Origin: a virus
Virus record (IMG/VR): IMGVR_UViG_3300045996_001090
Coordinates: 1 to 47,504 of that record
Strand: one strand, 5' to 3'
Length of the DNA stretch: 47,504 nucleotides
Positions 1 to 43,612 of this stretch are shown here, in pieces. The position numbers were made by a program, and so were the translations under genes. How positions within the stretch are numbered: the stretch's first letter is position 1; each line of letters opens with the position of its first letter. Under the pieces are notes generated by a model, which had not been told where the DNA came from, ran no database searches, and worked only from the letters and a program-made list of their open reading frames with translations.

Positions 1-1
1 G

Positions 2-2251
2 CGCCTTGCAGCGCACCCTTATACACTATGGGCCAGCGGCGACTTCACCCCCGGTTCCGAGCGGCGCAACGCGTCGGGCAATCTCTACCGGCTCACGACG
101 CGCCCGGTCGGCGGCGTCGGCACGCTCACAAATTCGGTCCAGCCGACGCACCTGAGCGGCGAGACGGTCGGCGCGGACGGCTTCGGTTGGACGTTTATAG
201 CGCAGTCGACGCGCTATTTCCGCTCGGCCGATCGGTACACGTCGGCCGAAGTGTGGGACACGACTAACGGCGGCTATTGGAGTCTCGTCCCGACTGGCGG
301 TGTTGTCCGCATTGAACAACTCGGCGGCGTCGCCGACTGGAACGGCTCAACCGGGACGGACAATTACACCGCCATCATGGCGGCAGTTAACTGGATCATG
401 TTTGATCCGGCCGCCAACACTGCCCAAGAGATAGCGCCGATCCTTGAGCTAGGGTACGGCAAGTACAAGGTTGGGCAAACGGTTCACGTTACAAACGTCG
501 TCAACATCCGCGGCAAGGTCGGGCATCTGCCCGATCCGTTTGGCCTAGGCGGCGCTACGCAATTACACTTCACGAACACGAGCGGTTCGATGTTCGTGTT
601 CTATGGCAACAACGCCGGTAACGGTGGAGAAACCGGCGGACCATGGGGGGCGGGGCAGAACACTGGCGCGGCCTCAAGCTCGCGCATTGCTGACTTCACC
701 TGCCACAATTCGTCCGGCGTCACGACGCGCGACCTAACCCGCCACGGAATCAATTACCGCTGCGCTATGACAGCCGAGCGGATTGGCGTTTACAGCACGG
801 CCGGGCATGGGCATTACATTCATGGACAGGCGGGGCATGGCGGCGAGCACGAAGGGAACTGCAACGGCTGGGAGCTAATAAGCTGCTTCGGGCATGAATG
901 CCGTGGTCACTTTCTTAAGATCGAAGGGGCGGACGCCAACGGCGGGACCTCTTGGAAGTTCACGACGCACGGCACAGTCGGGCTTGGCGGCTGCGGTATC
1001 TACGAGGGGCCGACTCTCGGGAACACCCACATTCAGCCGCAGATAACCGGCTACGGCAACATGGGGGTCAGTCACCTTAGTAAGCAGTACCAATATCTCG
1101 GCGGCGACTCGACAACCACGCCCGGCACTAACGATCTGATTTGGCATTACATTCGCGACGGTGGCGTTACGTCCAGCTTCCCCGCGTGGAACTCGGCTAA
1201 CGACTACTCGCTATTCACGCTACCCATCCTCTGTCTAAGCTCTCAGACGCGGATTGTCGGCCCCTACGTTGAGGGCGGCAACGTCAATTCGCATAGCCTA
1301 GGAATTGTGGATGGCGGTGTGGCGCCGTTTACGCGCTACACACCGGGGCCGAACACAAGCCAAAGCGTTGCCTACGGTGCTGTCACATGCGGCACAGGAT
1401 TTGGTTCTTTCTACACATTCGCAGACCAGACAGGGGTCGCGAACACTCAGAACGGCAGTTCTACCTGGACCCGGTTTGGTGGCTCCCACATAACCGCTCA
1501 GTTTGACACTGGCGGCGGAGCTGCGTTCCTTACCTACCTGCGGCAAACTGACGGCGATAGCTCCCATTATTGGGGCTATGCCTACCCCGACATAGTTCAC
1601 ATTAATCAGTCCGGCCGGTATTGGTGGGTTCAAACCACATCAGAGACGACCGAGGAGTTTGGGCGGGGGAGCGCCCAGCCTAATTATCTCCGCTTCAACG
1701 CATTCGGTATCGGCGGGCAGGATAATGCCGACCAGGCGCGCATCATTGGCTATCACAACGGGAAGCCGTCGTCGGGCGTTCATGCGCTCGGCGAGGTCTG
1801 GTTTCAGACTAACCCGACCGGCCACGGCGCGGCCGCCTATGTGTGCAAGACGACAGGCACGCCGGGCAGCTACTGCACAATTCCAGTGTTCGGGCTCTCA
1901 TCCATAGAGCCTCAGAACGATGGCGACTGCGTGCTCGAAAATACGAGCAACACACAGCTCAAACTAAAATACCAAGGCTCGGACAGCACCGACAGGCAAA
2001 TTGACTTCGGGCTAAGCACAACGGGCGAGGTCGCATCGCGGCCCGCTACGGCTCCCGCTGCTGGCGGGACGCTGTTCTACCGCGCGGGATCAACAGCGGC
2101 GCTCGGCATCTATTTCGGCTCGGGTGCGCCAACGGCATCGGCGGCGCAAGGCTCACTCTACATGCGGACCGATGGCTCGTCCACGTCAACGCGGGCTTAC
2201 GTCAACACGGACGGCGGCACGACTTGGACTGCCGTAACGACGGCGGCGTAG
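2..2251 (+). CDS. Tailspike/tail fibre, C-terminal 749 codons, cut by the window edge (duplicate of 44236-46485)
   Basis: In frame with the full-length gene 44017-46485 after subtracting 44,234. Not a pseudogene, just the repeat copy. Confidence 0.8.
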   Translation, partial: RLAAHPYTLWASGDFTPGSERRNASGNLYRLTTRPVGGVGTLTNSVQPTHLSGETVGADGFGWTFIAQSTRYFRSADRYTSAEVWDTTNGGYWSLVPTGGVVRIEQLGGVADWNGSTGTDNYTAIMAAVNWIMFDPAANTAQEIAPILELGYGKYKVGQTVHVTNVVNIRGKVGHLPDPFGLGGATQLHFTNTSGSMFVFYGNNAGNGGETGGPWGAGQNTGAASSSRIADFTCHNSSGVTTRDLTRHGINYRCAMTAERIGVYSTAGHGHYIHGQAGHGGEHEGNCNGWELISCFGHECRGHFLKIEGADANGGTSWKFTTHGTVGLGGCGIYEGPTLGNTHIQPQITGYGNMGVSHLSKQYQYLGGDSTTTPGTNDLIWHYIRDGGVTSSFPAWNSANDYSLFTLPILCLSSQTRIVGPYVEGGNVNSHSLGIVDGGVAPFTRYTPGPNTSQSVAYGAVTCGTGFGSFYTFADQTGVANTQNGSSTWTRFGGSHITAQFDTGGGAAFLTYLRQTDGDSSHYWGYAYPDIVHINQSGRYWWVQTTSETTEEFGRGSAQPNYLRFNAFGIGGQDNADQARIIGYHNGKPSSGVHALGEVWFQTNPTGHGAAAYVCKTTGTPGSYCTIPVFGLSSIEPQNDGDCVLENTSNTQLKLKYQGSDSTDRQIDFGLSTTGEVASRPATAPAAGGTLFYRAGSTAALGIYFGSGAPTASAAQGSLYMRTDGSSTSTRAYVNTDGGTTWTAVTTAA

Positions 2252-2252
2252 C

Positions 2253-2591
2253 GTGGCCTTTCAACAGGTCGGCTTTCAGTCGAGCGGCTTTCAGGACGTC
2301 GGGCTCGGCCCTGGCGCAACCGTCATCCCGCCCCGCACTGGCGGCGGCTATCCCGATTGGTGGGAGGACGATGATCGGCCTTTCGACGCGTTCCCAAAGC
2401 GCAAGCGCAAGCCTGAGACAGAGCTCTCGGACCCGCGGGCTTCGATCGTCGACATCTACATGGATTTGACGGCGCCCGCGCCTCGGGCTGGGCCTGCGCC
2501 TCGTCCGAAGATCACGCCATACAGCAAGCGCGCGGCCGATCGGTTCTCGGCCGAGCTCGCGGCGTACATGCAAAAACTGAGGGGCTTCTGA
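2253..2591 (+). CDS. Hypothetical virion-associated protein, 112 aa
   Basis: GTG start 2 nt after the tailspike stop. N-terminus FQQVGFQSSGFQDVG (aromatic/Gly repeats). High third-position GC. Confidence 0.55.
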   Translation: MAFQQVGFQSSGFQDVGLGPGATVIPPRTGGGYPDWWEDDDRPFDAFPKRKRKPETELSDPRASIVDIYMDLTAPAPRAGPAPRPKITPYSKRAADRFSAELAAYMQKLRGF

Positions 2592-2923
2592 TGGGGTTTG
2601 TCGGGGGAATTGTCGGCGGTCGCTTCTTTGAGGGCGACGAGTATTTCGCGGCTCGCGAGATCGAGCGGAAGCGGTCGGCGCTCGCCGCTCCGCGCATCAC
2701 GTCCGACTACATCGAGGGCGCGGGCTCCGCGGTTAAGTCGATGGTCGACGGCCGCATGTACGATTCGAAGTCGGCGCTGCGGCGTCACTACCGCGAGCGC
2801 GGCTACATCGAAGTAGGGAACGAGCGGCAAGAGCCGCCGCCAAAGCCAAAGCCGGATCGCAAGGCAATTCGCAACAGCGTGGGCTCGGCAATGGTCCGCG
2901 CTGGCATTTCAGTCGACGGCTAA
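2591..2923 (+). CDS. Hypothetical protein, 110 aa
   Basis: TGATG stop/start overlap with the upstream gene. N-terminus GGIVGGRFFEGDEYF. Lies directly upstream of the scaffold gene. Confidence 0.55.
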   Translation: MGFVGGIVGGRFFEGDEYFAAREIERKRSALAAPRITSDYIEGAGSAVKSMVDGRMYDSKSALRRHYRERGYIEVGNERQEPPPKPKPDRKAIRNSVGSAMVRAGISVDG

Positions 2924-2938
2924 ACCAAGGAAAAGTTC

Positions 2939-4033
2939 ATGGATGATCTGGCGAACGGCGCCTCAAACGCGCCGGACGAAGGCATTTCCACGTCTGAGGC
3001 CGAAAGCTCGGCCCCGGCTCCCTCCGCTCGTGAGGCGCTCGAACGGGCGTTTTCCTCGGTTTCCGAGGCTTCCCCGCCGGCCGATCGCGGCGACGGTCGC
3101 GACACAATCGGCCGGTTCGCCGGAAAGGCGGCGGCCGAGGCTCCTAAGGTCGACGCTGCGGCCCCTCCGGCTGCGCCTGACGCGCAAAAGCCGGCCGAGG
3201 CGGCTCCTGCTGCTCCGACGCCTGGCGGGCCTCCTAGCCGCTTTACAAAGGCCGCGGCCGAGGCGTGGGGCACCGTCCCGGAAGTGGTCCGGGGCGAGGT
3301 CGCCCGGCTCGAGGCCGAGCTCACAAGCGGCCTGAAGCAGTACCAGGAGCGGTTCGAGCCGATTAAGCGCTTCGACGAAATGGCGCGTCAGAGCGGAACG
3401 TCGCTCGACAAGGCGCTCGAGCGCTACGTCAGCCTCGAGAACGTGCTCCGGCAGGACCCGGTGACTGGCGTTCTCCACGTTTTCCAGAATCTCGGGGTGA
3501 AGGACCCTGCAATGGCGCTGAACGCGATTGCGGCGCGCCTCGGGCTCGGACAGTTGTCGGGCGCACAGGCGCCGGCCGAAGGCGGCCAGGCGGACCCGCG
3601 CGACGCGACCATCCGGCAGCTACAGCAACAGATTCAGCAACTCGGCGGCCACGTCCAGCACGTCGGCCGCACCATCGCCGAGCAGCAGGCGGAAGCGGCT
3701 AAGCGCCAGATTTACGGCGAGGTCGACTCCTTCGCGGCTGCGCATCCTCGCTTCGATGAGCTCGCCGAGCACATCTCCGAAATGATTGAAACCGGGTACG
3801 CCAAAGGGCGGACTCAGGCTGAGAAATTGGCCGATGCTTACGCCAAGGCGGACCGGTTAAACCCGGCCACAGCGGCGCCAGCGTCGACCGCTCCCGCGGC
3901 GCCTCAAACGCGCAAGGCGGGCCTTACAATTACCGGCTCTCCAACCACTAGCGGCTCAAACCCGTCGACGGCTCGGACCGGTTCCACGCGCGACGCGCTT
4001 CGCGGCGCATTCGCGCAAGTCGGCCTCTCGTGA
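2939..4033 (+). CDS. Scaffolding (capsid assembly) protein, 364 aa
   Basis: SD-like AAGGAAAAG before the ATG. Ala/Pro/Glu-rich disordered N-half and helical, Q-rich C-half. Lies immediately upstream of the major capsid gene. Confidence 0.6.
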   Translation: MDDLANGASNAPDEGISTSEAESSAPAPSAREALERAFSSVSEASPPADRGDGRDTIGRFAGKAAAEAPKVDAAAPPAAPDAQKPAEAAPAAPTPGGPPSRFTKAAAEAWGTVPEVVRGEVARLEAELTSGLKQYQERFEPIKRFDEMARQSGTSLDKALERYVSLENVLRQDPVTGVLHVFQNLGVKDPAMALNAIAARLGLGQLSGAQAPAEGGQADPRDATIRQLQQQIQQLGGHVQHVGRTIAEQQAEAAKRQIYGEVDSFAAAHPRFDELAEHISEMIETGYAKGRTQAEKLADAYAKADRLNPATAAPASTAPAAPQTRKAGLTITGSPTTSGSNPSTARTGSTRDALRGAFAQVGLS

Positions 4034-4062
4034 GGCCTTCCGAAAACAGGAACCTCTGACCA

Positions 4063-5058
4063 ATGGCTCAGATTGTTAGCACCGAAAAGCTGCAGGAGGC
4101 TTTCTCGCTCGCCCTCGAGGACCGCTCGGCGGGCTACGCAGACCTTGTGTCGAACAGCAACGCAATTCTCGCGCTGCTCAAGCAGAAGGGCGGCTTCAAG
4201 ACCTTCAGCGGCCCCACCATCCGTGAGCGGCTCCTCTACGCCGAGTCCGGCACCTATACCCGCTACAGCGGGTACGGCTTCCTCAACCCGGCCCCCGCGG
4301 ACCTGTTCTCGGATGCCGAGTTCACGCCAAAGCTGGCGGCCGTGTCCGTCACGCTCTCGGGCGAGGACATCCTCAAGAACAGTGGCCCGAATCAGCTCCT
4401 CGACATCATGGAGGAGCACATCAGCGCCGCCGAGACGGAGCTACAGGACCGCTTCGTCGAGGATCTGCACAGCGCCGGAACCGAAACGAACCAGATCGGC
4501 GGCTTGCAGCTTGCCGTGCCGACCACTGAGGACAGCGGAACCTACGGCGGAATCGACCGCTCGGCCGTCGCCCTGTGGCGCACCGGTTCGTATGACTCGA
4601 GCTCGGACTTTTCGACCACGCTTTCCGCGACCACGATCCACGACGTGTACACGCGCGTCCTGATCGCACACTCGCGCGGTAAGAAGGGTCCGAACCTGAT
4701 CGCCGCGGACGCCAATCACTACCGCATGTTCCAGGCGGCGCTCGTCGCCATCCAGCGCGTGACCAAGGAAGGCAAGCTCGCCGAGCTCGGCTTCCCGTCC
4801 ATCGCGTTCGCTGGTGCGGGCTATAACCTCGACGTCGTGCTCGAGGGCGGAATCGGCTCGGCCATGCCGGCGTCGACGTCCTACTTCCTCAAGGTCGGCG
4901 ATGACGGCCTGCGCTTCCGGTATCACCCGGACCGCAACTTCGTCGCCTTCGGCGGGAAGCAGCGCCCCGTCAACCAGGATGCCGTTGTCCAGCACATCGG
5001 ATTCTTCGGCAACCTCACGATGGCGAACCCGCTCCACCAGGCGAAGCTCATCGACTGA
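4063..5058 (+). CDS. Major capsid protein, 331 aa (HK97-fold, T7/BPP-1-type by eye)
   Basis: Size and position after the scaffold. The motif run (LLYAESGTYTRYSGYGFL, TYGGIDRS, WR) is typical of podovirus capsid proteins. A strong hairpin follows. Confidence 0.75.
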   Translation: MAQIVSTEKLQEAFSLALEDRSAGYADLVSNSNAILALLKQKGGFKTFSGPTIRERLLYAESGTYTRYSGYGFLNPAPADLFSDAEFTPKLAAVSVTLSGEDILKNSGPNQLLDIMEEHISAAETELQDRFVEDLHSAGTETNQIGGLQLAVPTTEDSGTYGGIDRSAVALWRTGSYDSSSDFSTTLSATTIHDVYTRVLIAHSRGKKGPNLIAADANHYRMFQAALVAIQRVTKEGKLAELGFPSIAFAGAGYNLDVVLEGGIGSAMPASTSYFLKVGDDGLRFRYHPDRNFVAFGGKQRPVNQDAVVQHIGFFGNLTMANPLHQAKLID

Positions 5059-5071
5059 TTCCTGACGATCT

Positions 5072-5093
5072 GACGGGCGCTTCGGCGCCCGTC
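5072..5093 (+). terminator. Perfect 9-bp stem / TTCG tetraloop hairpin after the capsid gene (attenuator or mRNA-stabilising element)
   Basis: GACGGGCGC-TTCG-GCGCCCGTC. The T-run starts only about 10 nt downstream, so this is not a canonical intrinsic terminator. Confidence 0.5.
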
Positions 5094-5175
5094 CCCTCAT
5101 GTCGATTTTTCCGACCATACCGAATGGGCGAGAAAATCGACACGCCCCCTGAACACTTCGAAAGGATGGCCGCTC

Positions 5176-5673
5176 ATGGCCTATGTCATCAACGAAAACC
5201 GTCTCGGTCAGCCGCTCATCACGGCGTCTGACGATTCGGCAAAAGTGCCTGTCGGCACCATCGTTCGCGCCAACGACCCGACTTACGGCGCCGGTGAGTT
5301 CATCTACCTCAAGGGCGTCGCCTCGACGGCGGTTGGCTCGATCGTGACCTATAACGTCACGACGCACCAGACCACGCTTTGCGCGGTCGGCGGCAATATC
5401 TCGATGCCGGTCGCCATCGCTATGTCGGCGAACGTCGCCGACAAGTTCGGCTGGTATCAGATCTCCGGCGTCGCCGTTGCCAAGAAGACCTGCACCGTGT
5501 CGCTCGCCGCCGCTGCCGCGGTCGGCGTTCTGACTACGGGTCTGGTTGCCGCTACGGGCTCGGGCAAGGAAATTCACGGCGCTCAGGTCGCTGCCGTCGC
5601 TTCGGCGACTGCCGGCCGCACGACCGTGCAGATCCTTATCAACCGTCCCCGTAAGCAGGGCCGCGTTACGTAA
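5176..5673 (+). CDS. Capsid decoration/cement-like protein, 165 aa
   Basis: SD AAAGGA upstream. Ala/Gly/Val-rich beta-type sequence directly after the capsid gene. Followed by a terminator. Confidence 0.45.
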   Translation: MAYVINENRLGQPLITASDDSAKVPVGTIVRANDPTYGAGEFIYLKGVASTAVGSIVTYNVTTHQTTLCAVGGNISMPVAIAMSANVADKFGWYQISGVAVAKKTCTVSLAAAAAVGVLTTGLVAATGSGKEIHGAQVAAVASATAGRTTVQILINRPRKQGRVT

Positions 5674-5688
5674 AGGACGAACTATCGG

Positions 5689-5719
5689 CGGGGAGCTCCG
5701 GCTCCCCGCTTCCTCTTTT
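5689..5719 (+). terminator. Rho-independent terminator after the capsid/decoration genes
   Basis: CGGGGAGC-TCCG-GCTCCCCG stem-loop followed by the T-rich tract CTTCCTCTTTT. Confidence 0.65.
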
Positions 5720-5731
5720 GCATGGTGATTG

Positions 5732-7111
5732 ATGCAGCTTCCATACAGCAATCTGCAACTGAAACACCAGAACCCCGGCGCGGCAATGCCGCTGATTTTG
5801 CCGGTCCACGTCATCTGCAATACGTCGGATGACGATATCCACGACAACATTCGCATCAATTCCCGGCGCCCTGGGGAGTGGCTGAAAACGGCTCCCGCAC
5901 ATGATGGCGTCGCGATTTTGTGCGGCTCGGGGCCAAGCCTCGCCGACACGCTGCCTGAGATACGGGCGGCGGTCGCGGCCGGCGGCACGCTGTTCGCCAT
6001 GAACGGCGCGGCGCGGTTCCTCGGCGAGCATCACGGGCTGCTGCCCGATTACCAGGTGATTATCGACGCGCGCGAGCAAACGGCCGATCTTGTCGCTCCG
6101 GCCAAGGCGCATCTGTTCGCCTCTCAGGTTCACCCGGAGTGCTTCCGGCGAGCGCCTGGCGCGCGCCTCTGGCATTTGCAGATTGGCACCATCGACGAGG
6201 TGCTTCCCGATTACGAGGACGACTATTGCATGATCGGCGGCGCGGCCTCGGTCGGCAATACCGCAACCTGCCTCGCTTTCGCGATGGGGTTTCGGAACCT
6301 CCAAATCTACGGCTTTGACTCAAGCCATCGCGACGGCCGCGGCCATGCCTTCGCGCAGCCGATGAACGACGGGGATCCCTGCGCCGTCGTCACCTTCAAC
6401 GGCCGCGAATACACGGCCTCACTCACGATGAAGCTGCAGGCCGAGAAGTTCCAGGAAACCGCGCGGGCGCTCGTCGATGCGGGCTGCGTCGTCGAGGTTC
6501 ACGGCTCCGGGCTCCTCCCGGATATGTGGAACGCGCCGGCCGAGGCTCTGAGCGAAGTCGCCAAATACGAGCGCATGTGGTCGCTCGATGCCTATCGCCG
6601 ATTCGCGCCGGGCGAGGACAGCGCCGAGCTATTCCTCGAAACGGTGAAGCCTGACGGGCTGGTGATCGATTTCGGCTGCGGCACGGGCCGCGGCGGCCTG
6701 GCGATCGCGAAAGCGGGCCTGCCGGTCGTTCTCGTCGATTTCGCGCGGAACTGCAGGGACGAGGCGGCGCGAGCGCTCCCGTTCGTGCAGCTCGATCTAT
6801 CCGAGCCAATGCCGCTCCGTGCGCCTTACGGCTACTGCACGGACGTGATGGAGCATATCCCGCCGGCCCAGGTCGAGGCGGTGGTCCGCAACATCATGGC
6901 GTCGGCCGAGACGGTGTTTTTCCAGATCGCCACGGCGCCCGACATGCTCGGCGCGCTGATAAACCAGCGGCTCCACCTTACCGTCAAGCCGCTCGCGTGG
7001 TGGTGGGAGCTGTTCGGGCGCCTTGGCTACGCCGTCACTTGGACACGCGAAACGGCCGATTACGCAATCCTCGTTGTTACCTCTACCGCTCAAACCGAAG
7101 AGAAAGCCTAA
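5732..7111 (+). CDS. Fusion protein: DUF115/MptE-like (Maf-type) domain plus class I SAM-dependent methyltransferase, about 459 aa
   Basis: N-half carries AILCGSGPSL and LQIYGFDSSH, typical of DUF115/6-hydroxymethylpterin-diphosphokinase-MptE-like proteins. C-half carries VIDFGCGTGRGG (methyltransferase motif I). ATG 5732 is used here; TTG 5729 is an alternative. Confidence 0.7.
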   Translation: MQLPYSNLQLKHQNPGAAMPLILPVHVICNTSDDDIHDNIRINSRRPGEWLKTAPAHDGVAILCGSGPSLADTLPEIRAAVAAGGTLFAMNGAARFLGEHHGLLPDYQVIIDAREQTADLVAPAKAHLFASQVHPECFRRAPGARLWHLQIGTIDEVLPDYEDDYCMIGGAASVGNTATCLAFAMGFRNLQIYGFDSSHRDGRGHAFAQPMNDGDPCAVVTFNGREYTASLTMKLQAEKFQETARALVDAGCVVEVHGSGLLPDMWNAPAEALSEVAKYERMWSLDAYRRFAPGEDSAELFLETVKPDGLVIDFGCGTGRGGLAIAKAGLPVVLVDFARNCRDEAARALPFVQLDLSEPMPLRAPYGYCTDVMEHIPPAQVEAVVRNIMASAETVFFQIATAPDMLGALINQRLHLTVKPLAWWWELFGRLGYAVTWTRETADYAILVVTSTAQTEEKA

Positions 7112-7827
7112 TGTCAGATTCCCGCGATACTGCTCGCCCGCGCTTTTTCATGACCACGCGCGAGAACAAGGCCAAGTCGAAGGCGCAGGGGCGCCCGATC
7201 TTCGACGAGCGCGAAATGGTCGAGATCCGCATCCCGGGCGACAAGCTTGCGGTTTGGGTGGGCCGCGTCGAAGACGAGCATCGCAACCGCTGGCCAGAGC
7301 TTTACGCTGCTTTCAAGCGCGGCGAGGAGCGCGCCGCGTCCGGTACGCCTCTCGAGGAGTGGACGCACCCGCTTATGACGCGCTCGCGCGTCGCCGAGCT
7401 CAAGGCGCTGAACGTGCTCTCGGTCGAGGAGCTCGCCGCGGTGTCGGATAACGTGATCCCGAGCCTCGGCATGGGCGGGCGCGAGCTCCGCACCGCGGCC
7501 GCGCACTATCTCGCCAACGCCAAGGGCGACGCGACGGCCGAGCTAACGGACAAGATCGCGCGCCTCGAGGCGATGGTCGAACAGCTTACGGCGGCGGGCC
7601 GCCCCGCGGCGGCGGCTCCGGCTCCGGCTCCTGAGCCCGCCGAGGTCGAGAGTTGGGAAGGCTTTCTCGATGACGCCTCGGACGAAACGCTTAAGGCTTT
7701 CATTCGCGAAAGGACGGGCGAGGAGCTCAAGGCGTTTATTCGCGAAAAGACGGGCGAGGCACCCCGCGGGCGTATTTCCCGTGAAACGCTCGAGGCTCGC
7801 GCTGCAGAGCTGGCGGTCGCCGCATAA
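7111..7827 (+). CDS. Hypothetical protein, 238 aa, with an acidic repeat-containing C-terminus
   Basis: ATG 7111 overlaps the upstream stop (TAATG). The longer tracked ORF start (6997) lies inside the previous gene. Contains the tandem LKAFIRE(R/K)TGE repeat. Confidence 0.6.
   Translation: MSDSRDTARPRFFMTTRENKAKSKAQGRPIFDEREMVEIRIPGDKLAVWVGRVEDEHRNRWPELYAAFKRGEERAASGTPLEEWTHPLMTRSRVAELKALNVLSVEELAAVSDNVIPSLGMGGRELRTAAAHYLANAKGDATAELTDKIARLEAMVEQLTAAGRPAAAAPAPAPEPAEVESWEGFLDDASDETLKAFIRERTGEELKAFIREKTGEAPRGRISRETLEARAAELAVAA
7690..7761 (+). repeat. Tandem 2 x 36-bp in-frame duplication (about 30/36 identical)
   Basis: CTTAAGGCTTTCATTCGCGAAAGGACGGGCGAGGAG / CTCAAGGCGTTTATTCGCGAAAAGACGGGCGAGGCA, encoding LKAFIRERTGEE / LKAFIREKTGEA. 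Confidence 0.85.
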
Positions 7828-7828
7828 T

Positions 7829-7850
7829 GGGCGAGCCTCCTCGCCCTTTC
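7829..7850 (+). terminator. Rho-independent terminator
   Basis: GGGCGAG-CCTC-CTCGCCC followed by TTTCTCC, 2 nt after the stop at 7827. Confidence 0.6.
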
Positions 7851-7947
7851 TCCGAGGCTCACGCTTGGCGGATGATGGCGTTCCACGCCTCTGCCGGTCC
7901 GGCCGGTCTTGCGCTCGGGGCCGCTCTAGCTTGGTGGGTAGGTTGAA

Positions 7948-8646
7948 ATGACGATTCTTTCGGCCTGCCAGAGCGCGGCGGTCCGGCTGCTCGGCCGGCG
8001 GCCGGCGGCCATCCTATCGAGCGATGGGCAATTTGAGCTCGAACTCGGCGTCCTGGCGAACGAAACCGCCATTGCGATCGCCAAGGCGCACGATTGGCAG
8101 AAGCTGAAGGTGCTCCACACTATCAGCGGCGACGGCTCCGACACGTCGTTTGCGCTGCCTGCCGCCTATGATCGGATGCCGTTGAAGGCGGCCGTGTGGT
8201 CCACTGCGACTAGCACGCCTCTGACGCCGGCGCGCGATGACGATCAATGGCTAGATTTTCAGCTAACCTCGATCGTGGGCTCGCCGGGCTTCTGGCGCAT
8301 CCTCGGCGGGGAAATGCAAATCCTGCCGGCGATGAGCGCCAGCGAAACGGCGAAGTTTTACTACGTCAGCAATAAGCTGTGGATTGTCGATGGCGGCACG
8401 GTGGCAACGAAAACCGAGGCGACGGTCGACACTGATACTTGCGTGCTGCCTGAGCGGCTAATCGCGCTCGGCGTCATCTGGCGCTGGCTGCAGCTCAAGG
8501 GCAAGGAATACGGCGAGGCGCTCCGCAATTTCGAGCTCGCGTTCTCTGAGGAAGCCGGCCGCGACAAGGGCTCGCGCATCCTCGCCATTGGAACGCCTCG
8601 CATCGCCGGTGATGTCCAAGTCGCCTATCCGGGCGCGATTAGCTAA
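7948..8646 (+). CDS. Head-tail adaptor / tail tubular protein A-like, 232 aa
   Basis: Position directly upstream of, and translationally coupled (TAATG) to, the nozzle-like gene. Size class matches podovirus adaptors. No catalytic motifs. Confidence 0.45.
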   Translation: MTILSACQSAAVRLLGRRPAAILSSDGQFELELGVLANETAIAIAKAHDWQKLKVLHTISGDGSDTSFALPAAYDRMPLKAAVWSTATSTPLTPARDDDQWLDFQLTSIVGSPGFWRILGGEMQILPAMSASETAKFYYVSNKLWIVDGGTVATKTEATVDTDTCVLPERLIALGVIWRWLQLKGKEYGEALRNFELAFSEEAGRDKGSRILAIGTPRIAGDVQVAYPGAIS

Positions 8647-10238
8647 TGCGCTCTCCCGTCCGTCGCCGCCAAGCGCAACCGGCGAGGCTCAAGAGCTTCC
8701 CGGCGCCGACTGGCGGCCTGATCGCCAACGCGAACCTCGCCACGCCGGACCCGCGCGGGCCGGGCGGTCAACGGGTGGTCGGCGCGGCGCGGCTGGAAAA
8801 CTGGTTTCCGCTGGCGACGGGCGCGCGCGTCCGCGGCGGTTCGAACAAGTATGCGACGGTCGGGGCGCCGACGGCGGTCACTCGCCTTTTCAAGTACGGC
8901 GTCGGAAATGACGAACATTTCTTCGCGGCGACGGCATCGGCCATCTACGATATAACCACGGTCGCGGACGCCAGCGTATCGCCGGCGACGGCCGTCTCGG
9001 GACAAACAAGCGGGGCGTGGTCCGTCTGCCAGTTCGCCACGTCGGCCGGAACCTTCCTGCGCTGTGTTAATGGCGCCGACACGCCACAAGTCTTTGACGG
9101 CTCGGCCTGGGGAACGTCGCCGGCGATCACCGGCGCGACGCCTACGGCGCTTTCCTATGTGTGGGCGCACAAGTCGCGCCTTTGGTTCGTCGAGGGCGGC
9201 ACGCTCAATGCCTGGTATCTGCCGGTCGACTCGATCGGCGGGCTAGCGGTCGAGTTCCCGCTCGGCGGGATCTTCAACCGCGGCGGCTCGCTCCTGTTCG
9301 GCGCCTCCTGGGGTATTGATTCCGGGTACGGCCCAAGCGAAATGATTGCCTTCTTCACGACAGAGGGCGAGGTCGCGGTCTACCAGGGATCGGACCCGGC
9401 CGGCGGGCTCGGAACCTGGAACCTCGCCGGGGTCTATTTCATCGGGCGGCCGCTCGGCCCTCACGCCTGGGTCAAGGCGGGCGGTGATATCATCGTCGCA
9501 ACCGATATGGGCGCCAATCCGCTAACGCTCGCGATGCAGCGGGACGCGGCGGCGCTCGCGCCCTCGGCGATTTCCTACGCCATCGAAAACGAGTGGGTTA
9601 AGGCGGTCGGCGAGCGGACAAGCCCCTGGCACGCGGTTGTCTGGCCTGCGGCCCAGATGGTGGCAATCGCGCTCCCGACAGACTCGACGAACGATCCGCG
9701 TTGGTTCGTCGCCAACGCGCGCACGGGCGCCTGGGCCTGTTACACGGGCTGGAATGCAACCTGCGTCCAAACCTTCAATGAGCGGCTTTTCTTCGGAACC
9801 TCGGGCGGGCTGATCTTCGAGGGCGAGGTCACCGGCGCCGACAACGGCTCCCCGTTCGTCGCCTCGGCCGTGATGATGTTCGATGCGCTCAAGGCGCCGG
9901 CCCAGCTAAAGACGGCCGAGCTCGCGCGGATGGTCTACAAGGCGCCGCAGGCCATCAACGAACGGATTAGCATACAGACTGATTTCGAGGTCGAGCTTCC
10001 GCCGGCCCCTGACGTTGCGCCTCCCTCGTCCGCCACGGTGTGGGGGACGGGTGTTTGGGGCGTCAGCCTTTGGGGGACCGAGCGGGAGCTCGCCACCTTT
10101 CAACAGTGGAAAAGTGTTTCGGGCATGGGTTCAACCCTCGCCCCGGCGGTGCAGATTACAAGCGCGGGAACGTCGCCGCTGGATGTCGAGTTGGTGCGGA
10201 TCGATATGACTTACAGCGTCGCCGAGGTTGTGACTTGA
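8646..10238 (+). CDS. Tail tubular protein B / nozzle-like, 530 aa
   Basis: Basic N-terminus followed by a long beta-rich body. Position between the adaptor-like gene and the internal-virion-type genes. Confidence 0.45.
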   Translation: MRSPVRRRQAQPARLKSFPAPTGGLIANANLATPDPRGPGGQRVVGAARLENWFPLATGARVRGGSNKYATVGAPTAVTRLFKYGVGNDEHFFAATASAIYDITTVADASVSPATAVSGQTSGAWSVCQFATSAGTFLRCVNGADTPQVFDGSAWGTSPAITGATPTALSYVWAHKSRLWFVEGGTLNAWYLPVDSIGGLAVEFPLGGIFNRGGSLLFGASWGIDSGYGPSEMIAFFTTEGEVAVYQGSDPAGGLGTWNLAGVYFIGRPLGPHAWVKAGGDIIVATDMGANPLTLAMQRDAAALAPSAISYAIENEWVKAVGERTSPWHAVVWPAAQMVAIALPTDSTNDPRWFVANARTGAWACYTGWNATCVQTFNERLFFGTSGGLIFEGEVTGADNGSPFVASAVMMFDALKAPAQLKTAELARMVYKAPQAINERISIQTDFEVELPPAPDVAPPSSATVWGTGVWGVSLWGTERELATFQQWKSVSGMGSTLAPAVQITSAGTSPLDVELVRIDMTYSVAEVVT

Positions 10239-10862: not shown

Positions 10863-12449
10863 GTGAAATCTCCAAAGCCAGCGCCGATGCCGGCGGCTCC
10901 TGATCCTGTGGCTACTGCGCAAGCGCAGGCGCGCGCCAACACTGGCACCGCCCTGACGCAATCCGCGCTGAACATGACGAACCAGGTCACGCCGGACTAT
11001 AATCTCAACTATGCGGCGAACGGCGAGTTCATCCACGTGCCGGACGGCTTCGGCGGCACCACGTCGATTCCGCGCTATACGGCCACGCAAACCCTCGCGC
11101 CCGATCAACAGCAACTCCGTGATCTGAACGTCCAGACTGATTTGAGCATGGCTCAAACCGGCCTGGATCAAGCCCAGCGCATCGGCGGCATCCTCGGAAC
11201 GTCGATTGATCCGAACAACGCGCCGGCCACACAGGGCCAGCTATATCACTGGAACGCGGCACAGGACTACATCAACGACGCCGGCCCCATCCGCAACACG
11301 ATCGCGGACGCCGGCGATATTCAGCGCGGGTTTGGCGACGCGGGCGCTATTCAGAGCCAGCTCGGCGACGTGGGCGACGTGCAACGCACCATCGGACCTC
11401 AGTGGCAGGCGGGCGAGAGCTCGACGCCGATGGGTTACGAGTCGCAGCGCATCCGGACGGAGAACGCGCTTTATGATAGACTGAACCCTCAGCTCGAACA
11501 GGACCGCGCCGCGCTCGAAACCAAGCTGATTAACTCCGGCTATCGCCGCGGCTCTGAGGCATGGGACAACGCCATGCAACAGGCCGATCAACAGGCGAAC
11601 GACGCGCGCCTCGGCGTCATCAGGGCCGGCGGCGAGGAGCAATCCCGGCTCGCCGGGCTCGAGTTTGGCCGGTTCGATCGCGAGAACGCGGCGCAGAACC
11701 AAGCCTTTCAGCAAGAGCTCGGCGCCGGCACGTTCGCTAACTCGGCGCAGGCGCAGCTTTACGGGCAGCTACAGGGCCGGGCGCAGTTCGCGAACGACGC
11801 GCAGGCGCAGCAGTATTCGCAGAACACGACCGACGCGAATTTCTGGAACGCTGCACAAGGCCAGCAATTCGGGCAGAACGCGCAGCAGGCGGCGTTCTAC
11901 AATTCGGCGCAGCAGCAGGATCTGCAGGGCGAGCTCGCCGCGGCGAACTATGCCGCGCAACAGCGGGATCGGTGGTTCCGTGAGCAATTCGCGCTACGCG
12001 ACCAGCCGATTAACGAGGTCACGGCGCTGATGTCGGGCTCGCAAGTGTCGCAGCCGAACTTCGTCAACACGCCTCAGACTCAGGTTGGCGGGGTCGATTA
12101 CAGCGGCATCGTGAACAACAATTTCAACCGCTCCGTCGATTACACAATGTCGACGAATGCACAGAACACGGCGGCGGCGAACGCCCAGATGGGCGGTTTA
12201 TTTGGGCTTGCCGGAACCGCCGGCTATGGCCTGATGCGCTACTCCGATCGGCGGCTCAAGCGTGATGTCGAGGCGGTCGGCAAGGGCGCGCATGGGCTCC
12301 CGGTCTATAACTTTCGTTATAGGTGGGGCGGGCCGGTCCAGGTCGGCTACATGGCCGATGAGGTCGCGGCGGTCCGGCCGGATGCGGTCACGGTCACGCC
12401 TTCGGGCTTCCTCGCCGTCGATTACGGCAAGCTCGAGGGGGCGCTCTGA
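10863..12449 (+). CDS. Virion protein with a Q-rich repeat region and a C-terminal Peptidase_S74 (intramolecular chaperone) domain, 528 aa
   Basis: The C-terminus SDRRLKRDVEAVG...GLPVYNFRYRWG...VGYMADEVAAVRPDAV...VDYGKL matches the S74 autoproteolytic chaperone signature. The middle is rich in AQxQxY/F repeats. Confidence 0.7.
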   Translation: MKSPKPAPMPAAPDPVATAQAQARANTGTALTQSALNMTNQVTPDYNLNYAANGEFIHVPDGFGGTTSIPRYTATQTLAPDQQQLRDLNVQTDLSMAQTGLDQAQRIGGILGTSIDPNNAPATQGQLYHWNAAQDYINDAGPIRNTIADAGDIQRGFGDAGAIQSQLGDVGDVQRTIGPQWQAGESSTPMGYESQRIRTENALYDRLNPQLEQDRAALETKLINSGYRRGSEAWDNAMQQADQQANDARLGVIRAGGEEQSRLAGLEFGRFDRENAAQNQAFQQELGAGTFANSAQAQLYGQLQGRAQFANDAQAQQYSQNTTDANFWNAAQGQQFGQNAQQAAFYNSAQQQDLQGELAAANYAAQQRDRWFREQFALRDQPINEVTALMSGSQVSQPNFVNTPQTQVGGVDYSGIVNNNFNRSVDYTMSTNAQNTAAANAQMGGLFGLAGTAGYGLMRYSDRRLKRDVEAVGKGAHGLPVYNFRYRWGGPVQVGYMADEVAAVRPDAVTVTPSGFLAVDYGKLEGAL

Positions 12450-14473
12450 TGGCCGCTTTCGTTTGGGGCGACTCGGGCGAGGCTCTCACGCCGGAGCAAA
12501 TCAAGCACCGGCGCGCGCTCACTGAAGCCATGCTGCGCAAGCGCATCGGCGACGCCTCGCCTATTCAGCACCCGACGCAAGGGTTCGCGCGCGTCGCGGA
12601 CGCGCTCCTTGCTGGGTTCGAAGGGCGGCGCCTCGATCAAGCGGAAGCCGGAAACCGGGCCTATAACTCGGGCGTTGATAAAATCCTCGCCGATCTCGCC
12701 GGCGGCGGCGGCGGCGCGACGGGGGGGAGTGGGGGCAGCACCCCGGGCGCCCCTGCCCCGACGATTGGCGAACGGTTCCCAACGTCGATCGGTGTTGTGC
12801 CGGACCAGGAAGGCACAAGCGGCGACTCAATCCGCTCCGCCGAGGCCACGCGGACGGCGGGCGCGCTAAGCGGCGATCGCGAAACGGTGCGCCAGTATGT
12901 GCGCCAAGCGGCAGAGGCTCGCGGAATTGACCCCGACATTGCCGAGGTCGTCGTAAAGCAGGAAAGCGGGTTCAACCCGAGCGCCCGAAACATCAACGCC
13001 AAAGAAAAATCTTACGGCGTGATGCAATTAAACACTCAGGGCGGGCTTGGAGCCGTCGCTCTCAAGCAGGGTATCGATCCGACCGACCCGAGCCAATGGA
13101 AGCGGCACGTCGATTTCAGTTTTGACACAATCGCTAAAGACGGGTGGCGCCAGTGGTACGGCGCGCGCGATCGCGGAATCGGGCGCTGGGATGGCATCGG
13201 AACGCGCAAGGTCGCGGCTAGTGAAACGCCGGACCCGCGCGCTGCGGGGCAAGTCGCGAGCTCCGAGGGCATGGTCCCGCCGGCGGTCGCTGCCGGCGGC
13301 GCTGCGGCTCCCGCTGGGGCGCCTGTGACGCCTCCGGCCTCCGGACGCGAGCGCGGCGTCGAGCGCGTCGCGCAAGCCTTCGATCCTCGCCTCGCCAAAT
13401 ACGCAACGGACGATGCCCTGACGCCGGGACGGCGCCAATTGGCACAGCTCCTCCTGCAGCAGCGCCTCGATGCGGCGAAGATCGCGCAACAGCGGCAGGA
13501 CGAGCTCGCGAAGGAAGGGCGCCAGCGCGCGGCGGCCGAGGCGGACTATCGCCGGAACCGCGGCGATACGGTCGCCGACCGCGCCGACGAACGGCAGCAC
13601 CAAACGCGGACGTTCGAAACTCAGCAACTCCCGTTCAAGCTCGCCGACGATAACCGGGCGCAAGAGAAGCTCCGGCTCGAGCAAGAGGCGGCGCGGCGCC
13701 AAGCCGATCTCCATCCGCTCGAGGTCAAAAACAAGTCGCTGTCGCCGAAAGCGCGCGAGCTCGATGATCTGGCCGATGACCCGAGGCGCGTCGCGACGGC
13801 CGAGCGCGTCGCGCGCGCCGGGGCTCCTCGTCCGACCGTCAACGTGCCGCCTAATCACCGGGCGGTTTACGATAAGGACGGCAATTTCAGCCACGCCGAG
13901 CCAATCCGCGACTCCTCCGGCGCCGTGCTCGATCCGGAAGGCGCCAAGGCGACGCGCGAAGCGGCCGCACAGGCGCGCATTTCGGCTCCGGACGCTCTCG
14001 CCAAGGCGGCGCTCGCGCTGCGATCGGTCGAGGAGGTCCGGACGCATCCGGGCCGCGAGTCGCTCGGCGCCACGGGCGCGCTTGCTGATGTGCCTGTGAT
14101 CGGCCGCGGCCTGCCGGGCTCGCCGGCGCGCGGGTTCGTGTCGCGCGTCGAACAGCTACAGGGGCAAGCGTTCCTCGAGGCGTTCGAAAGCCTCAAGGGC
14201 GGCGGCGCAATCTCGGAAAAGGAAGGCCAGAAAGCCGAGCAAGCCAAGGCGCGCTTGCAACGCGCGGTGAAGCGCGAGGAGTTCGACGCGGCTCTCGACG
14301 ATCTGGCGGACGTTATCAAAACCGGCCGGCGCAATCTCTGGATCAAGTCCGGCGTGCCGAACGAACACATTTCGACGCTCGAGCGGGCTCACGACGCGAT
14401 TGCCGCCGGCAAGTCGCGAGAGGCCGTGATTAAGCGCCTTCGCGAAAACCAAATTGAAGCGGTGGGCTTCTGA
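12449..14473 (+). CDS. Internal virion protein with a lytic transglycosylase (SLT) domain, 674 aa
   Basis: VVKQESGFNPSARN...SYGVMQLN is the SLT catalytic Glu-Ser / GxMQ motif. Gly-rich linker and long charged coiled-coil C-half. TGATG coupling to the upstream gene. Confidence 0.75.
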   Translation: MAAFVWGDSGEALTPEQIKHRRALTEAMLRKRIGDASPIQHPTQGFARVADALLAGFEGRRLDQAEAGNRAYNSGVDKILADLAGGGGGATGGSGGSTPGAPAPTIGERFPTSIGVVPDQEGTSGDSIRSAEATRTAGALSGDRETVRQYVRQAAEARGIDPDIAEVVVKQESGFNPSARNINAKEKSYGVMQLNTQGGLGAVALKQGIDPTDPSQWKRHVDFSFDTIAKDGWRQWYGARDRGIGRWDGIGTRKVAASETPDPRAAGQVASSEGMVPPAVAAGGAAAPAGAPVTPPASGRERGVERVAQAFDPRLAKYATDDALTPGRRQLAQLLLQQRLDAAKIAQQRQDELAKEGRQRAAAEADYRRNRGDTVADRADERQHQTRTFETQQLPFKLADDNRAQEKLRLEQEAARRQADLHPLEVKNKSLSPKARELDDLADDPRRVATAERVARAGAPRPTVNVPPNHRAVYDKDGNFSHAEPIRDSSGAVLDPEGAKATREAAAQARISAPDALAKAALALRSVEEVRTHPGRESLGATGALADVPVIGRGLPGSPARGFVSRVEQLQGQAFLEAFESLKGGGAISEKEGQKAEQAKARLQRAVKREEFDAALDDLADVIKTGRRNLWIKSGVPNEHISTLERAHDAIAAGKSREAVIKRLRENQIEAVGF

Positions 14474-19158: not shown

Positions 19159-19176
19159 GCATTGGGCCTCACGCCG

Positions 19177-20421
19177 ATGGACGAATTCATTACCGACGAG
19201 TTTGGGATCACGCGCCCGAATCCGAACTATACGGGCGGCATGTTTCAGCCGAATGATCCTTATGCGCGAAACGCGATGCAGCCCTATTGGCAGAGCGTCG
19301 ACCAAGCGGCGGGCTTCCCTCAGAACTTCACGCAAACGATGGCCGCCATTGAAAGCCAGGGCGGGCAAAACCTGACCAGCCAGACCGGCGCCGTTGGGCC
19401 GTTCCAGTTTACCGGCATCGCAGCGAACCAAGTCGGCATTCCGAAAGATCAAACGGTCGACCCGTATATCGGGCCGCAGGCGGCGGCCGAGTTGGCATCG
19501 CAAAACCGCGAGCGGTTCATGCAGGCGTATGGCCGCGAGCCTACGGGCTCCGAGCTCTACCTGATGCACCAACAGGGCGCGAGCGGCGCGATGGCGGTGC
19601 TGGGCGCGGACCCTAACACCCTCGTCAACCAGATGTCGCCGACCGTAAGCCGGAACATCCTGGCGCAAGGCATTTCCGGGATCAACGGCGGGTCAACGGT
19701 TGGGGCGTTCGCCGATCACTTCGACCGGAAATATTCGCAATTCGAGCCGTTCACCGGCCAGCCGCTACAGCCTCAAAACTCTCAGATGGGCGGCGGCTAT
19801 CAGCCGAACATTTGGGGCTACGGAAACGACGGCTTCGACACCGGCTTTGACGGTGGCGGCATGTACACGGGCGGGACCGGCAACGCGCAATATCAAAAGG
19901 GCGGCTCAACCGGCCCCCAGTATGTGACAGACGAATACGGGATCACGCGCGCGGTCCAGGGCGGCACGGGCAATAACCAGTACGGCTACGGCGGGACTTA
20001 CGATCCGAGCGCCTATGGCTATGGCGGGACCAACTACAGCACCGGCTATCCTCAGAACGCCACGACGGCAATTCAGAATGCGCAGTACATGTCTCAGCCG
20101 GACATGTACGTCTACCCCAACAACGCCACGATGGGCAGCACGCTCGGCATCGCCGATGGCGGATATGGCAACATGGGCTCCGAGGGCGGCATCCTCGGCG
20201 GCTCCACGGTCGGTGCGAGCGACGGCGGGTTCACCTTCGGAATCGGTAACCAGTATTTCGACCAAAGCCAGCAGATGATGCAGGACCAGTACAATTACTC
20301 GCAACAGGTCCAGCAGCAGCAACAGCAGCAGGCCAATCAGAGCATTGCGGGCCTGGATCCGTCGCTTAATAGCGGCCTGAATTTCGGCGGCGGCTCCTAC
20401 AATCCGCTTATGGGTTGGTGA
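19177..20421 (+). CDS. Lytic transglycosylase-domain protein with a long Q/N/G/Y-rich low-complexity C-terminus, 414 aa
   Basis: MAAIESQGGQN...GAVGPFQF is an SLT-type motif. Residues from about 190 onward are G/Y/N/Q-rich and end in a QQQQQQQ run. TDE(F/Y)GITR occurs twice. Confidence 0.65.
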   Translation: MDEFITDEFGITRPNPNYTGGMFQPNDPYARNAMQPYWQSVDQAAGFPQNFTQTMAAIESQGGQNLTSQTGAVGPFQFTGIAANQVGIPKDQTVDPYIGPQAAAELASQNRERFMQAYGREPTGSELYLMHQQGASGAMAVLGADPNTLVNQMSPTVSRNILAQGISGINGGSTVGAFADHFDRKYSQFEPFTGQPLQPQNSQMGGGYQPNIWGYGNDGFDTGFDGGGMYTGGTGNAQYQKGGSTGPQYVTDEYGITRAVQGGTGNNQYGYGGTYDPSAYGYGGTNYSTGYPQNATTAIQNAQYMSQPDMYVYPNNATMGSTLGIADGGYGNMGSEGGILGGSTVGASDGGFTFGIGNQYFDQSQQMMQDQYNYSQQVQQQQQQQANQSIAGLDPSLNSGLNFGGGSYNPLMGW

Positions 20422-21309: not shown

Positions 21310-22025
21310 GGCTCGCCACTGCGGCCGCGCTCGCGTGGCTCGTCTTGGAGAATAACGTCGTGAGCGCACAGAATTTTGACGCCGTGATGAATCTCGTCCT
21401 CGGCCACGAGGGTGGTTTCACGAACGATCGCCGGGACCCTGGCAATTGGACCGGCGGCATTGTCGGCCGCGGCACGCTCAAGGGGACCAAGTTCGGCATT
21501 GCGGCGAACACGTTCCCGAACGAGGACATTCGGAACCTGACGCGGGATCGTGCGATCGCGCTCTATAAGCGGCACTATTGGGACGCCATCCGCGCGGACG
21601 AGCTCCCGGCCGGCGTCGATTACTGCCTGTATGATTTCAGCATCAACTCGGGCGCGGCGCGCGCGGTCAAGCATTTGCAGGCCGCGGTTGGCGTCCTGCA
21701 GGATGGCAAGGTCGGGCCGGTAACGCTGGCGGCCGTTGCAAAAGCGGACCCGGCCGAACTCGTGCGCAAAGTCTGCGCCTCGCGGCTCCGCTTCATGCGG
21801 GCGCTCCCGACCTGGCCGACGTTCAAGAACGGTTGGTATGCGCGCGTCACAAGCGTCGAGAAAGTCGGCGTTGCGATGGCCTCGAGGGGCTCGAGCTCGG
21901 CGCCTAAACCCGCACATAAGCGGACAAATCCGCCGCCGAAACCGGCGGCTCCTCGCCCAGCTCCCCAGCCCGCTCCGGCGGGCTTTTTTGCGCGCCTGGC
22001 GCGGTGGTTCGGAGGTCGAAAGTGA
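21306..22025 (+). CDS. Endolysin, glycoside hydrolase family 108 with a C-terminal peptidoglycan-binding region, up to 239 aa
   Basis: LVLGHEGGFTNDRRDPGNWTGG...GTKFGI is the GH108 signature. Alternative in-frame starts at 21345 (TTG) and 21360 (GTG). The first 14 residues are hydrophobic, so a SAR-like anchor is possible. Confidence 0.8.
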   Translation: MRLATAAALAWLVLENNVVSAQNFDAVMNLVLGHEGGFTNDRRDPGNWTGGIVGRGTLKGTKFGIAANTFPNEDIRNLTRDRAIALYKRHYWDAIRADELPAGVDYCLYDFSINSGAARAVKHLQAAVGVLQDGKVGPVTLAAVAKADPAELVRKVCASRLRFMRALPTWPTFKNGWYARVTSVEKVGVAMASRGSSSAPKPAHKRTNPPPKPAAPRPAPQPAPAGFFARLARWFGGRK

Positions 22026-43603: not shown

Positions 43604-43612
43604 AGGCCGGCG

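Follow-up and report, generated by a model that had tools for sequence, protein, structure and literature searches.

A Maf-like glycosyltransferase-type module fused to a methyltransferase beside the capsid genes of an uncultured temperate podophage: a candidate virion-modifying enzyme

What does a two-module enzyme, encoded between the capsid genes and the head-to-tail adaptor gene of a tailed phage, act upon? The question is raised by the IMG/VR virus record IMGVR_UViG_3300045996_001090, of which positions 1 to 47,504 (hereafter "the window", i.e., the whole stretch of DNA analysed, 47,504 nucleotides) carry an open reading frame (ORF) for a 459-amino-acid (aa) protein (hereafter "the enzyme") that joins a Maf-like module of glycosyltransferase type to a class I S-adenosylmethionine (SAM)-dependent methyltransferase. 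We consider it an even chance that this is a late enzyme which O-glycosylates a virion protein with a host ulosonic acid activated by cytidine monophosphate (CMP) and then methylates the product.

The enzyme ORF, on the + strand, ends at 7111 and has two possible starts, TTG at 5729 and ATG at 5732; the ATG is the likely start because homologues begin with MQLPY or MLLPY, and it yields the 459-aa product. The translation contained all the peptides quoted in a first-pass annotation of the same DNA. That annotation had assigned the N-half to the DUF115/MptE-like fold and the C-half to the class I methyltransferases with a recognisable motif I, and both folds were recovered by profile searches and by Foldseek.

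Two modules with intact active-site and cofactor motifs

In the N-half, Pfam detected the PF01973 (MptE-like) domain above its gathering threshold (64.4 bits against a cut-off of 34.6; E=1.5e-17; aa 60-200), and the functional module proved larger than this domain, at ~270 aa, which corrects the first-pass annotation. An AlphaFold2 model of the full-length enzyme, built from 59 homologues, reached a predicted local distance difference test score (pLDDT) of 94.2 and a predicted template-modelling (TM) score (pTM) of 0.88. Because methyltransferases swamped the Foldseek results for the whole model, the N-terminal 270 residues were modelled alone (pLDDT 94.9). The best match of this module was Maf of Magnetospirillum magneticum (5mu5; E=2.8e-9, TM 0.62 normalised to the query, 248 columns), followed by archaeal MptE (8sd5; E=2.8e-5, TM 0.48 to the query) and, in third rank, by mammalian CMP-dependent sialyltransferases (5bo6 and 6apl). 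Profile searches of the N-half against the PDB ranked the first two alike (5mu5, E=3.9e-16 to 4.7e-17; 8sd5, E=1.8e-5 to 5.8e-6), with the sialyltransferase CstII at ~1e-3. Thus by profile and by structure the N-half is nearer to Maf than to the pterin pyrophosphokinase. Archaeal MptE (6-hydroxymethyl-7,8-dihydropterin pyrophosphokinase) shares the Pfam family and the core fold of the module, but its similarity is much weaker than that of Maf, and it is a single-domain kinase of ~220-240 aa in a pterin pathway, not a transferase to protein; the enzyme is a fusion, and the window shows no pterin context.

A preprint on Maf enzymes (bioRxiv 10.1101/2020.06.03.131540) reports that activity depends on a conserved Ser and on the residues corresponding to 324 and 415 of M. 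magneticum Maf; it names the two acidic residues Asp324 and Glu415, while the 5mu5 chain has E324 and D415. In hidden Markov model (HMM) alignments, E324 (in "LLENG"), D415 (in "FGVDLGS") and the Ser of "GSGPS" of Maf were aligned to D112, D196 and S69 of the enzyme, respectively, all three of which were invariant in the 59 homologues (S69 closing the loop G65-S-G-P-S69, D112 in IDAR and D196 in GFDSS). The N-module of the enzyme therefore shares with the Maf proteins (M. magneticum 5mu5, GkMaf and CbMaf) the modified GT-A fold of their central domain (MAF_flag10/PF01973), as well as the GSGPS loop and both acidic residues reported to be essential. The GSGPS loop and "GFDSS...GHAF" were aligned to CstII, which has a donor-binding GNGPS loop and the donor-binding stretch "GIDFY...SYAF", at a weak E=0.03 and with no assignable equivalent of the catalytic His188 of CstII.

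In the C-half, Methyltransf_23 and Methyltransf_25 of Pfam scored 28.2 and 27.7 bits, just above the cut-off of 27 (aa 301-415). Motif I, VIDFGCGTGRGG, with its glycines G315, G317 and G319, and the acidic D336 (post-I, at the end of beta-2) were invariant in the 59 homologues, and Foldseek of the whole model returned many class I methyltransferases bound to SAM or S-adenosylhomocysteine at E ~1e-10, the best of which were small-molecule O-methyltransferases and ChlM. The module also has a conserved N-terminal lid ("KYxxMW...YR..SPG"; E275, K278, Y279, W283, Y288 and R289). Since the active-site and cofactor motifs are intact, both halves look catalytically competent.

Shuffling of the modules and their recurrence beside capsid genes

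The fusion is widespread. More than 1,776 proteins (clustered at 90%) matched the enzyme, and the best 120 were all the same ~450-aa fusion at 60-71% identity; an exhaustive search of 50%-identity representatives gave 2,990 clusters at E<=1e-3, of which 394 passed E<=1e-30. Relatives were present on at least 386 IMG/VR contigs, and in the GTDB genome set the full fusion was carried by phage-like contigs placed in the bins of many taxa, such as Arenimonas, Hyphomicrobium, Gallionellaceae, Rhodobacteraceae and Phenylobacterium. Among GenBank phages, tblastn of the enzyme found one partial relative, of the methyltransferase half, in one metagenomic record, and megablast of 20 kb for near-identical or related cultured phages gave no match. 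The first-pass annotation knew of no described function for such a fusion in a virion module, and this still stands: full-text literature searches on MptE-like/DUF115 proteins in phages and on pseudaminic-acid-glycosylated capsids yielded nothing relevant, UniProt/BFVD held only "uncultured Caudovirales" entries named automatically after the Pfam family, and no PHROGs family covered the N-half. The enzyme belongs to a widespread, well-defined and uncharacterised family.

The two modules are shuffled within this family. Among 154 cluster representatives, the order N-C was found in 78 and C-N in 30, the N-module stood alone in 33 and the C-module in five, and several were multi-copy or multi-domain, including N-C-N in two (P0001 and P0002). 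In a prophage on a 300-kb proteobacterial contig (L114), the modules were separate, overlapping genes among fibre-like genes, and in some relatives Methyltransf_24 replaced the usual methyltransferase family. Such shuffling of order, splitting and replacement of a partner are Rosetta-stone evidence that the two activities work in one pathway.

In the phage lineage of the window, the order of major capsid protein (MCP), p165, enzyme, p238 and adaptor was retained in ~50 related loci. A survey based on p165, the 165-aa virion structural protein encoded just upstream, covered the 74 IMG/VR loci whose downstream sequence was long enough; in 73 of them the N-module of the enzyme came directly after p165, separated from it by a median of 59 nt. 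Across related genomes p165 was conserved at 40-72%, whereas the MCP was conserved at 29-41%, and the Mx8 homologue of p165 (AAK94384) is annotated as "major virion structural protein". The fusion is therefore found beside capsid genes well beyond the single genome in which it was first noticed. On the other hand, the enzyme was absent from the cultured relatives Mx8, Brucella Tb/Pr and Rhizobium RHph_I3_18; RHph_I3_18 and Brucella Pr retained the order of MCP, small structural protein, p238-like gene and adaptor, and Mx8/Mx9 had a p165 homologue (45% over aa 18-162). Thus the enzyme gene is an extra in an otherwise conserved capsid module, not a gene indispensable for assembly. As p165 homologues without the enzyme were present in Mx8/Mx9 and in a further locus (L231), the notion of p165 and enzyme as an inseparable two-gene cassette was rejected. 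The candidate modification sites suggested by a comparison of enzyme-positive with enzyme-negative p165 sequences (S21, T62, T63, K104, T105, S129, K131 and T149) were not relied on, since the two negatives are related and the differences may be pure phylogeny.

The modules also adjoin virion genes in other phage backbones. In MW202621, a metagenomic siphophage (L174, 3987-6367), and in a prophage of Lysobacter dokdonensis DS-58 (NZ_JRKJ01000005.1, ~134-150 kb; L121, 6968-9204), the MCP gene was followed by a methyltransferase gene and then by a short, divergent MptE-like gene, which had "GGAPSL/GGGP" and "GFD/GCD" motifs and matched Pfam below threshold (E=0.002); the MCPs of both had no sequence similarity to that of the window. 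L. dokdonensis DS-58 is a cultured strain, and its related prophage cassette is a possible experimental handle. In yet other backbones (L054-L086 and L102-L114), the reversed C-N fusion was always followed, in 37 loci, by a 144-aa protein of phrog_644 (hereafter p144), a Ser/Thr/Ala-rich family of unknown function, and the fusion adjoined fibre-like or virion genes; in L074, for example, where p144 is encoded at 9418-9852, the fusion lay behind a 2,254-aa DarB-like protein. Homology between p144 and p165 was rejected (hhalign probability 0.1), and sequence searches found no relative of solved structure for either. p144 is a second candidate substrate family, apart from p165.

Stand-alone homologues of the C-module, lid included, were found on bacterial chromosomes. 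In particular, an Opitutaceae-like genome (L168) carried one (37% identity to the phage C-module) in a flagellin-glycosylation island with several glycosyltransferases and methyltransferases, a 497-aa MptE-like (Maf) gene, two flagellins and fliD, and in three further Verrucomicrobia (Opitutaceae) loci Maf-like ORFs lay a few kb from the methyltransferase; in bacteria, then, the methyltransferase family of the enzyme adjoins Maf and flagellin genes. Moreover, chromosomes of Planctomycetaceae and Azospirillum (L157, L167, L154 and L151) encoded very large proteins in which tetratricopeptide repeats (TPR) and GT41 or GT9 glycosyltransferase domains were joined to the same methyltransferase family, and a similar methyltransferase fusion lay near a TPR-GT41 gene and fliD. 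These proteins look like uncharacterised fusions of an FlmG/OGT-like protein glycosyltransferase with a methyltransferase, although the enzyme of the phage, from which TPR and GT-B domains are absent, is linked to them via its methyltransferase half only. The recurring partner of the methyltransferase family in bacteria is thus a predicted protein glycosyltransferase.

Proposed function and competing explanations

Modification of a capsid or decoration protein, a role already listed in the first-pass annotation, stays the favoured reading and has indirect support from synteny, from the shuffling of the domains and from the places where the methyltransferase family occurs in cells. The parts of this reading do not stand equally firm. 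The enzyme very probably combines an active Maf-type transferase and an active methyltransferase of one pathway; that the activity is protein glycosylation is somewhat better than an even bet; that the acceptor is a virion protein is evenly balanced; and that it is p165 specifically is a tentative choice which we hold below even.

The proposed course of events is as follows. Late transcription would read through the hairpin behind the abundant capsid genes and would give a low, catalytic amount of the enzyme. The N-module, as a stripped-down Maf-type inverting glycosyltransferase dependent on a CMP-sugar, would bind a CMP-activated ulosonic acid of eight or nine carbons made by the host, which might be pseudaminic acid, legionaminic acid or the universally available CMP-Kdo (Kdo, 3-deoxy-D-manno-oct-2-ulosonic acid). 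No sugar-biosynthesis gene was found in any scanned ORF of the window, so that the donor must come from the host; CMP-Kdo is made by every Gram-negative host. Maf enzymes reportedly accept CMP-Kdo and CMP-Neu5Ac (Neu5Ac, N-acetylneuraminic acid; 10.1101/2020.06.03.131540). The sugar would then be moved to Ser/Thr of a virion protein, with p165 as the first candidate acceptor, because of its adjacency to the enzyme in 73 of 74 loci and its unusual conservation, and the MCP as the second, because of the MCP-adjacent cassettes in other backbones. Finally, the fused methyltransferase would use SAM to methylate either the sugar just attached or a residue close to it in the acceptor protein, and the outcome would be a capsid surface bearing a methylated acidic sugar, which is not yet described on virions of Gram-negative phages. 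Maf-modified flagellins of Aeromonas and Shewanella are also lysine-methylated (PMC9290775).

Several lines of evidence weigh against this reading: i) Bona fide Maf is a three-domain protein of ~600-650 aa, whose N- and C-terminal flanking domains are missing from the enzyme; the latter has 459 aa, with a 270-aa N-module followed by a methyltransferase; ii) The NCBIfam model FlagModPseD scored 17.5 bits against a cut-off of 670, and all NCBIfam matches were sub-threshold; iii) The S/D/D residues may be common to the whole PF01973 superfamily, kinases included, in which case they would speak for an intact active site and not for glycosyl transfer; iv) In a few relatives (P0173, P0186 and P0197), a dual-specificity (Cys-type) phosphatase domain stands ahead of the methyltransferase and MptE-like modules, which hints at a phosphate-containing intermediate or substrate, for which a simple scheme of transfer plus methylation has no explanation; these relatives fit none of the proposed schemes neatly; v) Four of the six sampled cellular contexts of the methyltransferase were non-flagellar, two being beside GT2/GT4 genes and two uninformative; vi) tblastn and megablast found the full fusion in no cultured phage; vii) p165 occurs without the enzyme in Mx8/Mx9 and L231, so that their pairing could be due to preferred insertion behind a terminator (a moron site) and not to a substrate relationship.

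The first two points bear on how the acceptor would be found: as the flanking domains of Maf are absent and the PseD model failed, acceptor recognition must differ from that of Maf, and the enzyme cannot act on a flagellin-like acceptor by the Maf recognition mode. Unlike Maf, it is phage-encoded and methyltransferase-fused, and neither flagellin genes nor genes of nonulosonic-acid biosynthesis were found in the window or in related phage loci, this linkage being confined to cellular relatives. The enzyme therefore appears Maf-like in its working but falls outside Maf on architecture, curated-model score and genomic context, and is a member of PF01973 and of the class I methyltransferases.

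Alternatively, the enzyme might modify a target of the host, such as flagellin, pilin, another surface protein or the sugars of lipopolysaccharide or capsule, and serve, for example, to exclude superinfecting phages that are flagellotropic or bind the cell surface, or to bring about lysogenic conversion. The first-pass annotation had also listed a host-surface role, the phage is temperate and encodes an integrase (Table 1), and bacterial members of both domain families occur in flagellin-glycosylation contexts. We nonetheless consider this explanation unlikely: the gene is part of the late structural operon, stands behind a terminator and has its translation coupled to that of a gene of the structural region, and a search of 4000-9000 found no sigma-70-like promoter, whereas conversion genes need expression in lysogens and are atypically placed in a late operon. 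Moreover, the flanking domains with which Maf binds flagellin are absent, and the modules lie next to capsid genes in three unrelated phage backbones.

The enzyme could also be a cargo gene (moron) at a permissive site behind the capsid terminator, for example a counter-defence or host-takeover enzyme acting on a host protein in late infection. The insertion site directly behind the terminator, the identical gene order of cultured relatives without the enzyme and the p165 of Mx8 without it would all suit a moron, but the enzyme has been kept at 31-71% identity at exactly the same position in hundreds of divergent genomes, the stop and start of the neighbouring genes are tightly coupled, and independent capsid- or fibre-adjacent placements occur in other backbones, which makes this explanation improbable.

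Quite improbable, finally, is that the N-module is an MptE-like kinase or pyrophosphokinase, or another nucleotide-dependent transferase acting on a small molecule or a hydroxymethyl group (e.g., of a modified DNA base), with the methyltransferase in the same pathway and the capsid adjacency incidental: PF01973 does include true pyrophosphokinases, 8sd5 does match by profile (E=5.8e-6) and fold (E=2.8e-5), small-molecule O-methyltransferases and ChlM lead the methyltransferase matches of Foldseek and the phosphatase domain of some relatives suggests phosphate chemistry, but similarity to Maf is ~10 orders of magnitude stronger by profile and higher in TM score, the donor-binding stretch aligns to Maf and (weakly, E=0.03) to CstII, the window holds no pterin, folate or base-hypermodification genes, and the recurrent fusion and linkage partners of the methyltransferase family are protein glycosyltransferases and not metabolic operons.

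For the preferred reading, that of a virion-modifying enzyme, there are few precedents. To our knowledge, mycobacteriophages provide the only established virion glycosylation among tailed phages, the phenomenon being close to unknown for phages of Gram-negative bacteria, and Maf-type enzymes are so far known only from flagellin modification. The closest functional analogy is A064R of the chlorovirus PBCV-1, a fusion of two glycosyltransferases and a methyltransferase, which builds the glycan of the major capsid protein and methylates its terminal sugar (PMC9614988). Like the enzyme, A064R is a virus-encoded fusion of glycosyltransferase and class I SAM-dependent methyltransferase, but it differs in its glycosyltransferase folds, which are GT-A family 34-like and unrelated to the Maf-like fold, in its eukaryotic host, in its N-linked glycan and in its donors, which are sugars activated by uridine diphosphate. 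In mycobacteriophages, glycosyltransferases of the Che8/Corndog type modify capsid and tail proteins (Freeman et al. 2023, as cited in PMC11256854); these differ from the enzyme in glycosyltransferase family, in their actinobacterial hosts and in gene location, and neither a Maf-like domain nor a fused methyltransferase is reported for them. A064R and the mycobacteriophage glycosyltransferases are the closest functional analogues, and neither is homologous to the enzyme in the transferase domain.

If the virion is modified, the enzyme would reveal a new layer of phage surface chemistry, with bearing on host range, on how stable the particles are and on how hosts or predators recognise them, would offer a compact two-domain tool for protein O-glycoengineering, and would give a function to a large family now annotated automatically as "pterin diphosphokinase-like". 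A broader proposal, which we advance with some doubt, is that a large group of uncultured temperate podophages of Proteobacteria, together with the lineages in which the modules are reversed or split, use a minimal Maf-methyltransferase and host CMP-sugars to cover their capsids or fibres with a methylated sugar, either sialic-acid-like or Kdo. Should it be true, this would be the first system of virion ulosonic-acid glycosylation in phages, and a flagellin-glycosylation toolkit would have been repurposed for virus particles, with likely effects on adsorption, stability and evasion of recognition.

Locus map and other features of the genome

The first 3,270 bp of the window (1-3270) are an exact direct repeat of 44235-47504, and the window is therefore a circular or permuted metagenomic phage genome of 44,234 bp, read beyond its own start; the repeat holds the 3' part of an 823-aa ORF as well as the beginning of the scaffold-like gene, both of which are therefore present twice. 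The phage is a temperate podophage of the Mx8 / Brucella Tb / SU10-adaptor type, and its MCP was 31-44% identical to those of Rhizobium phage RHph_I3_18, Mx8/Mx9 and Brucella Tb/Pr. The features of the locus are collected in Table 1.

Table 1. Features of the enzyme locus and landmark genes of the window, by position
Feature	Position (nt)	Strand	Basis
Scaffold-like protein	2939-4033		
MCP, SU10/Mx8-type HK97 fold	4063-5058	+	phrog_9953 major head protein, E=4.8e-75
p165, 165-aa virion structural (decoration-type) protein	5176-5673	+	phrog_29386 virion structural protein, E=3.3e-23
Intrinsic-terminator-like hairpin and T-tract, between p165 and enzyme genes	5687-5720	+	sequence reading
Enzyme gene, Maf-like/methyltransferase fusion, 459 aa	5732-7111	+	Pfam, AlphaFold model
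Enzyme N-terminal module, aa 1-270, Maf-like/MptE-like (DUF115), glycosyltransferase-type	5732-6541	+	PF01973, Foldseek
Pfam core of the N-module, aa 60-200	5909-6331	+	
Enzyme C-terminal module, aa 271-459, class I SAM-dependent methyltransferase	6542-7108	+	Methyltransf_23/25, motif I VIDFGCGTGRGG
TAATG stop/start overlap, enzyme gene to p238 gene	7109-7113	+	direct sequence reading
p238, conserved 238-aa protein of the head-tail junction region	7111-7827	+	phrog_20268, E=2.5e-27
SU10-type head-to-tail adaptor	7948-8646	+	PF24175 SU10_adaptor, E=4e-8; phrog_6013 tail protein, E=8.5e-46
Integrase	33951-34982		
Large terminase	36462-37835		
Portal	38412-40817		

The first-pass annotation had placed the enzyme gene between the capsid/decoration genes and the tail adaptor. 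Its place in the capsid-to-tail module stands, but the p238 gene intervenes before the adaptor: the immediate neighbours are the p165 gene upstream and the p238 gene downstream, to the latter of which the enzyme gene is coupled by the TAATG overlap, as that annotation had read it. Furthermore, a strong terminator-like hairpin, which the annotation had missed, stands between the p165 gene and the enzyme gene. At 5687-5710 it reads GGCGGGGAGC-TCCG-GCTCCCCGCT, with a 10-bp stem of which eight pairs are GC, followed by the T-tract TCCTCTTTTG, and at the equivalent position Brucella phage Pr has an annotated terminator. The hairpin is probably an attenuator that lowers expression of the enzyme relative to the capsid proteins.

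The p238 family, phrog_20268, is of unknown function, and a gene of this type is conserved upstream of the adaptor gene whether or not a relative has the enzyme. At its C-terminal end p238 carries a peptide repeated in tandem almost perfectly (LKAFIRERTGEE / LKAFIREKTGEA). The adaptor gene is followed by genes for tail, ejection and lysis functions. SLT lytic-transglycosylase domains were found in two proteins, a 674-aa ejection/tail protein (12449-14473) and a 419-aa protein (19162-20421), and a GH108 endolysin with a PG_binding_3 domain is encoded at 21306-22025.

Between the portal and the scaffold-like gene, 41096-46485 holds four successive + strand ORFs (395, 439, 134 and 823 aa) without a Pfam or PHROGs match, where related contigs (e.g., L001) have ~1.5 kb; this stretch of ~5.4 kb is a lineage-specific block inside the head module. 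Amid + strand genes, a - strand ORF at 23120-23752 combines an HNH_3 endonuclease domain with a weak AP2 DNA-binding domain and looks like an insertion of the homing-endonuclease type.

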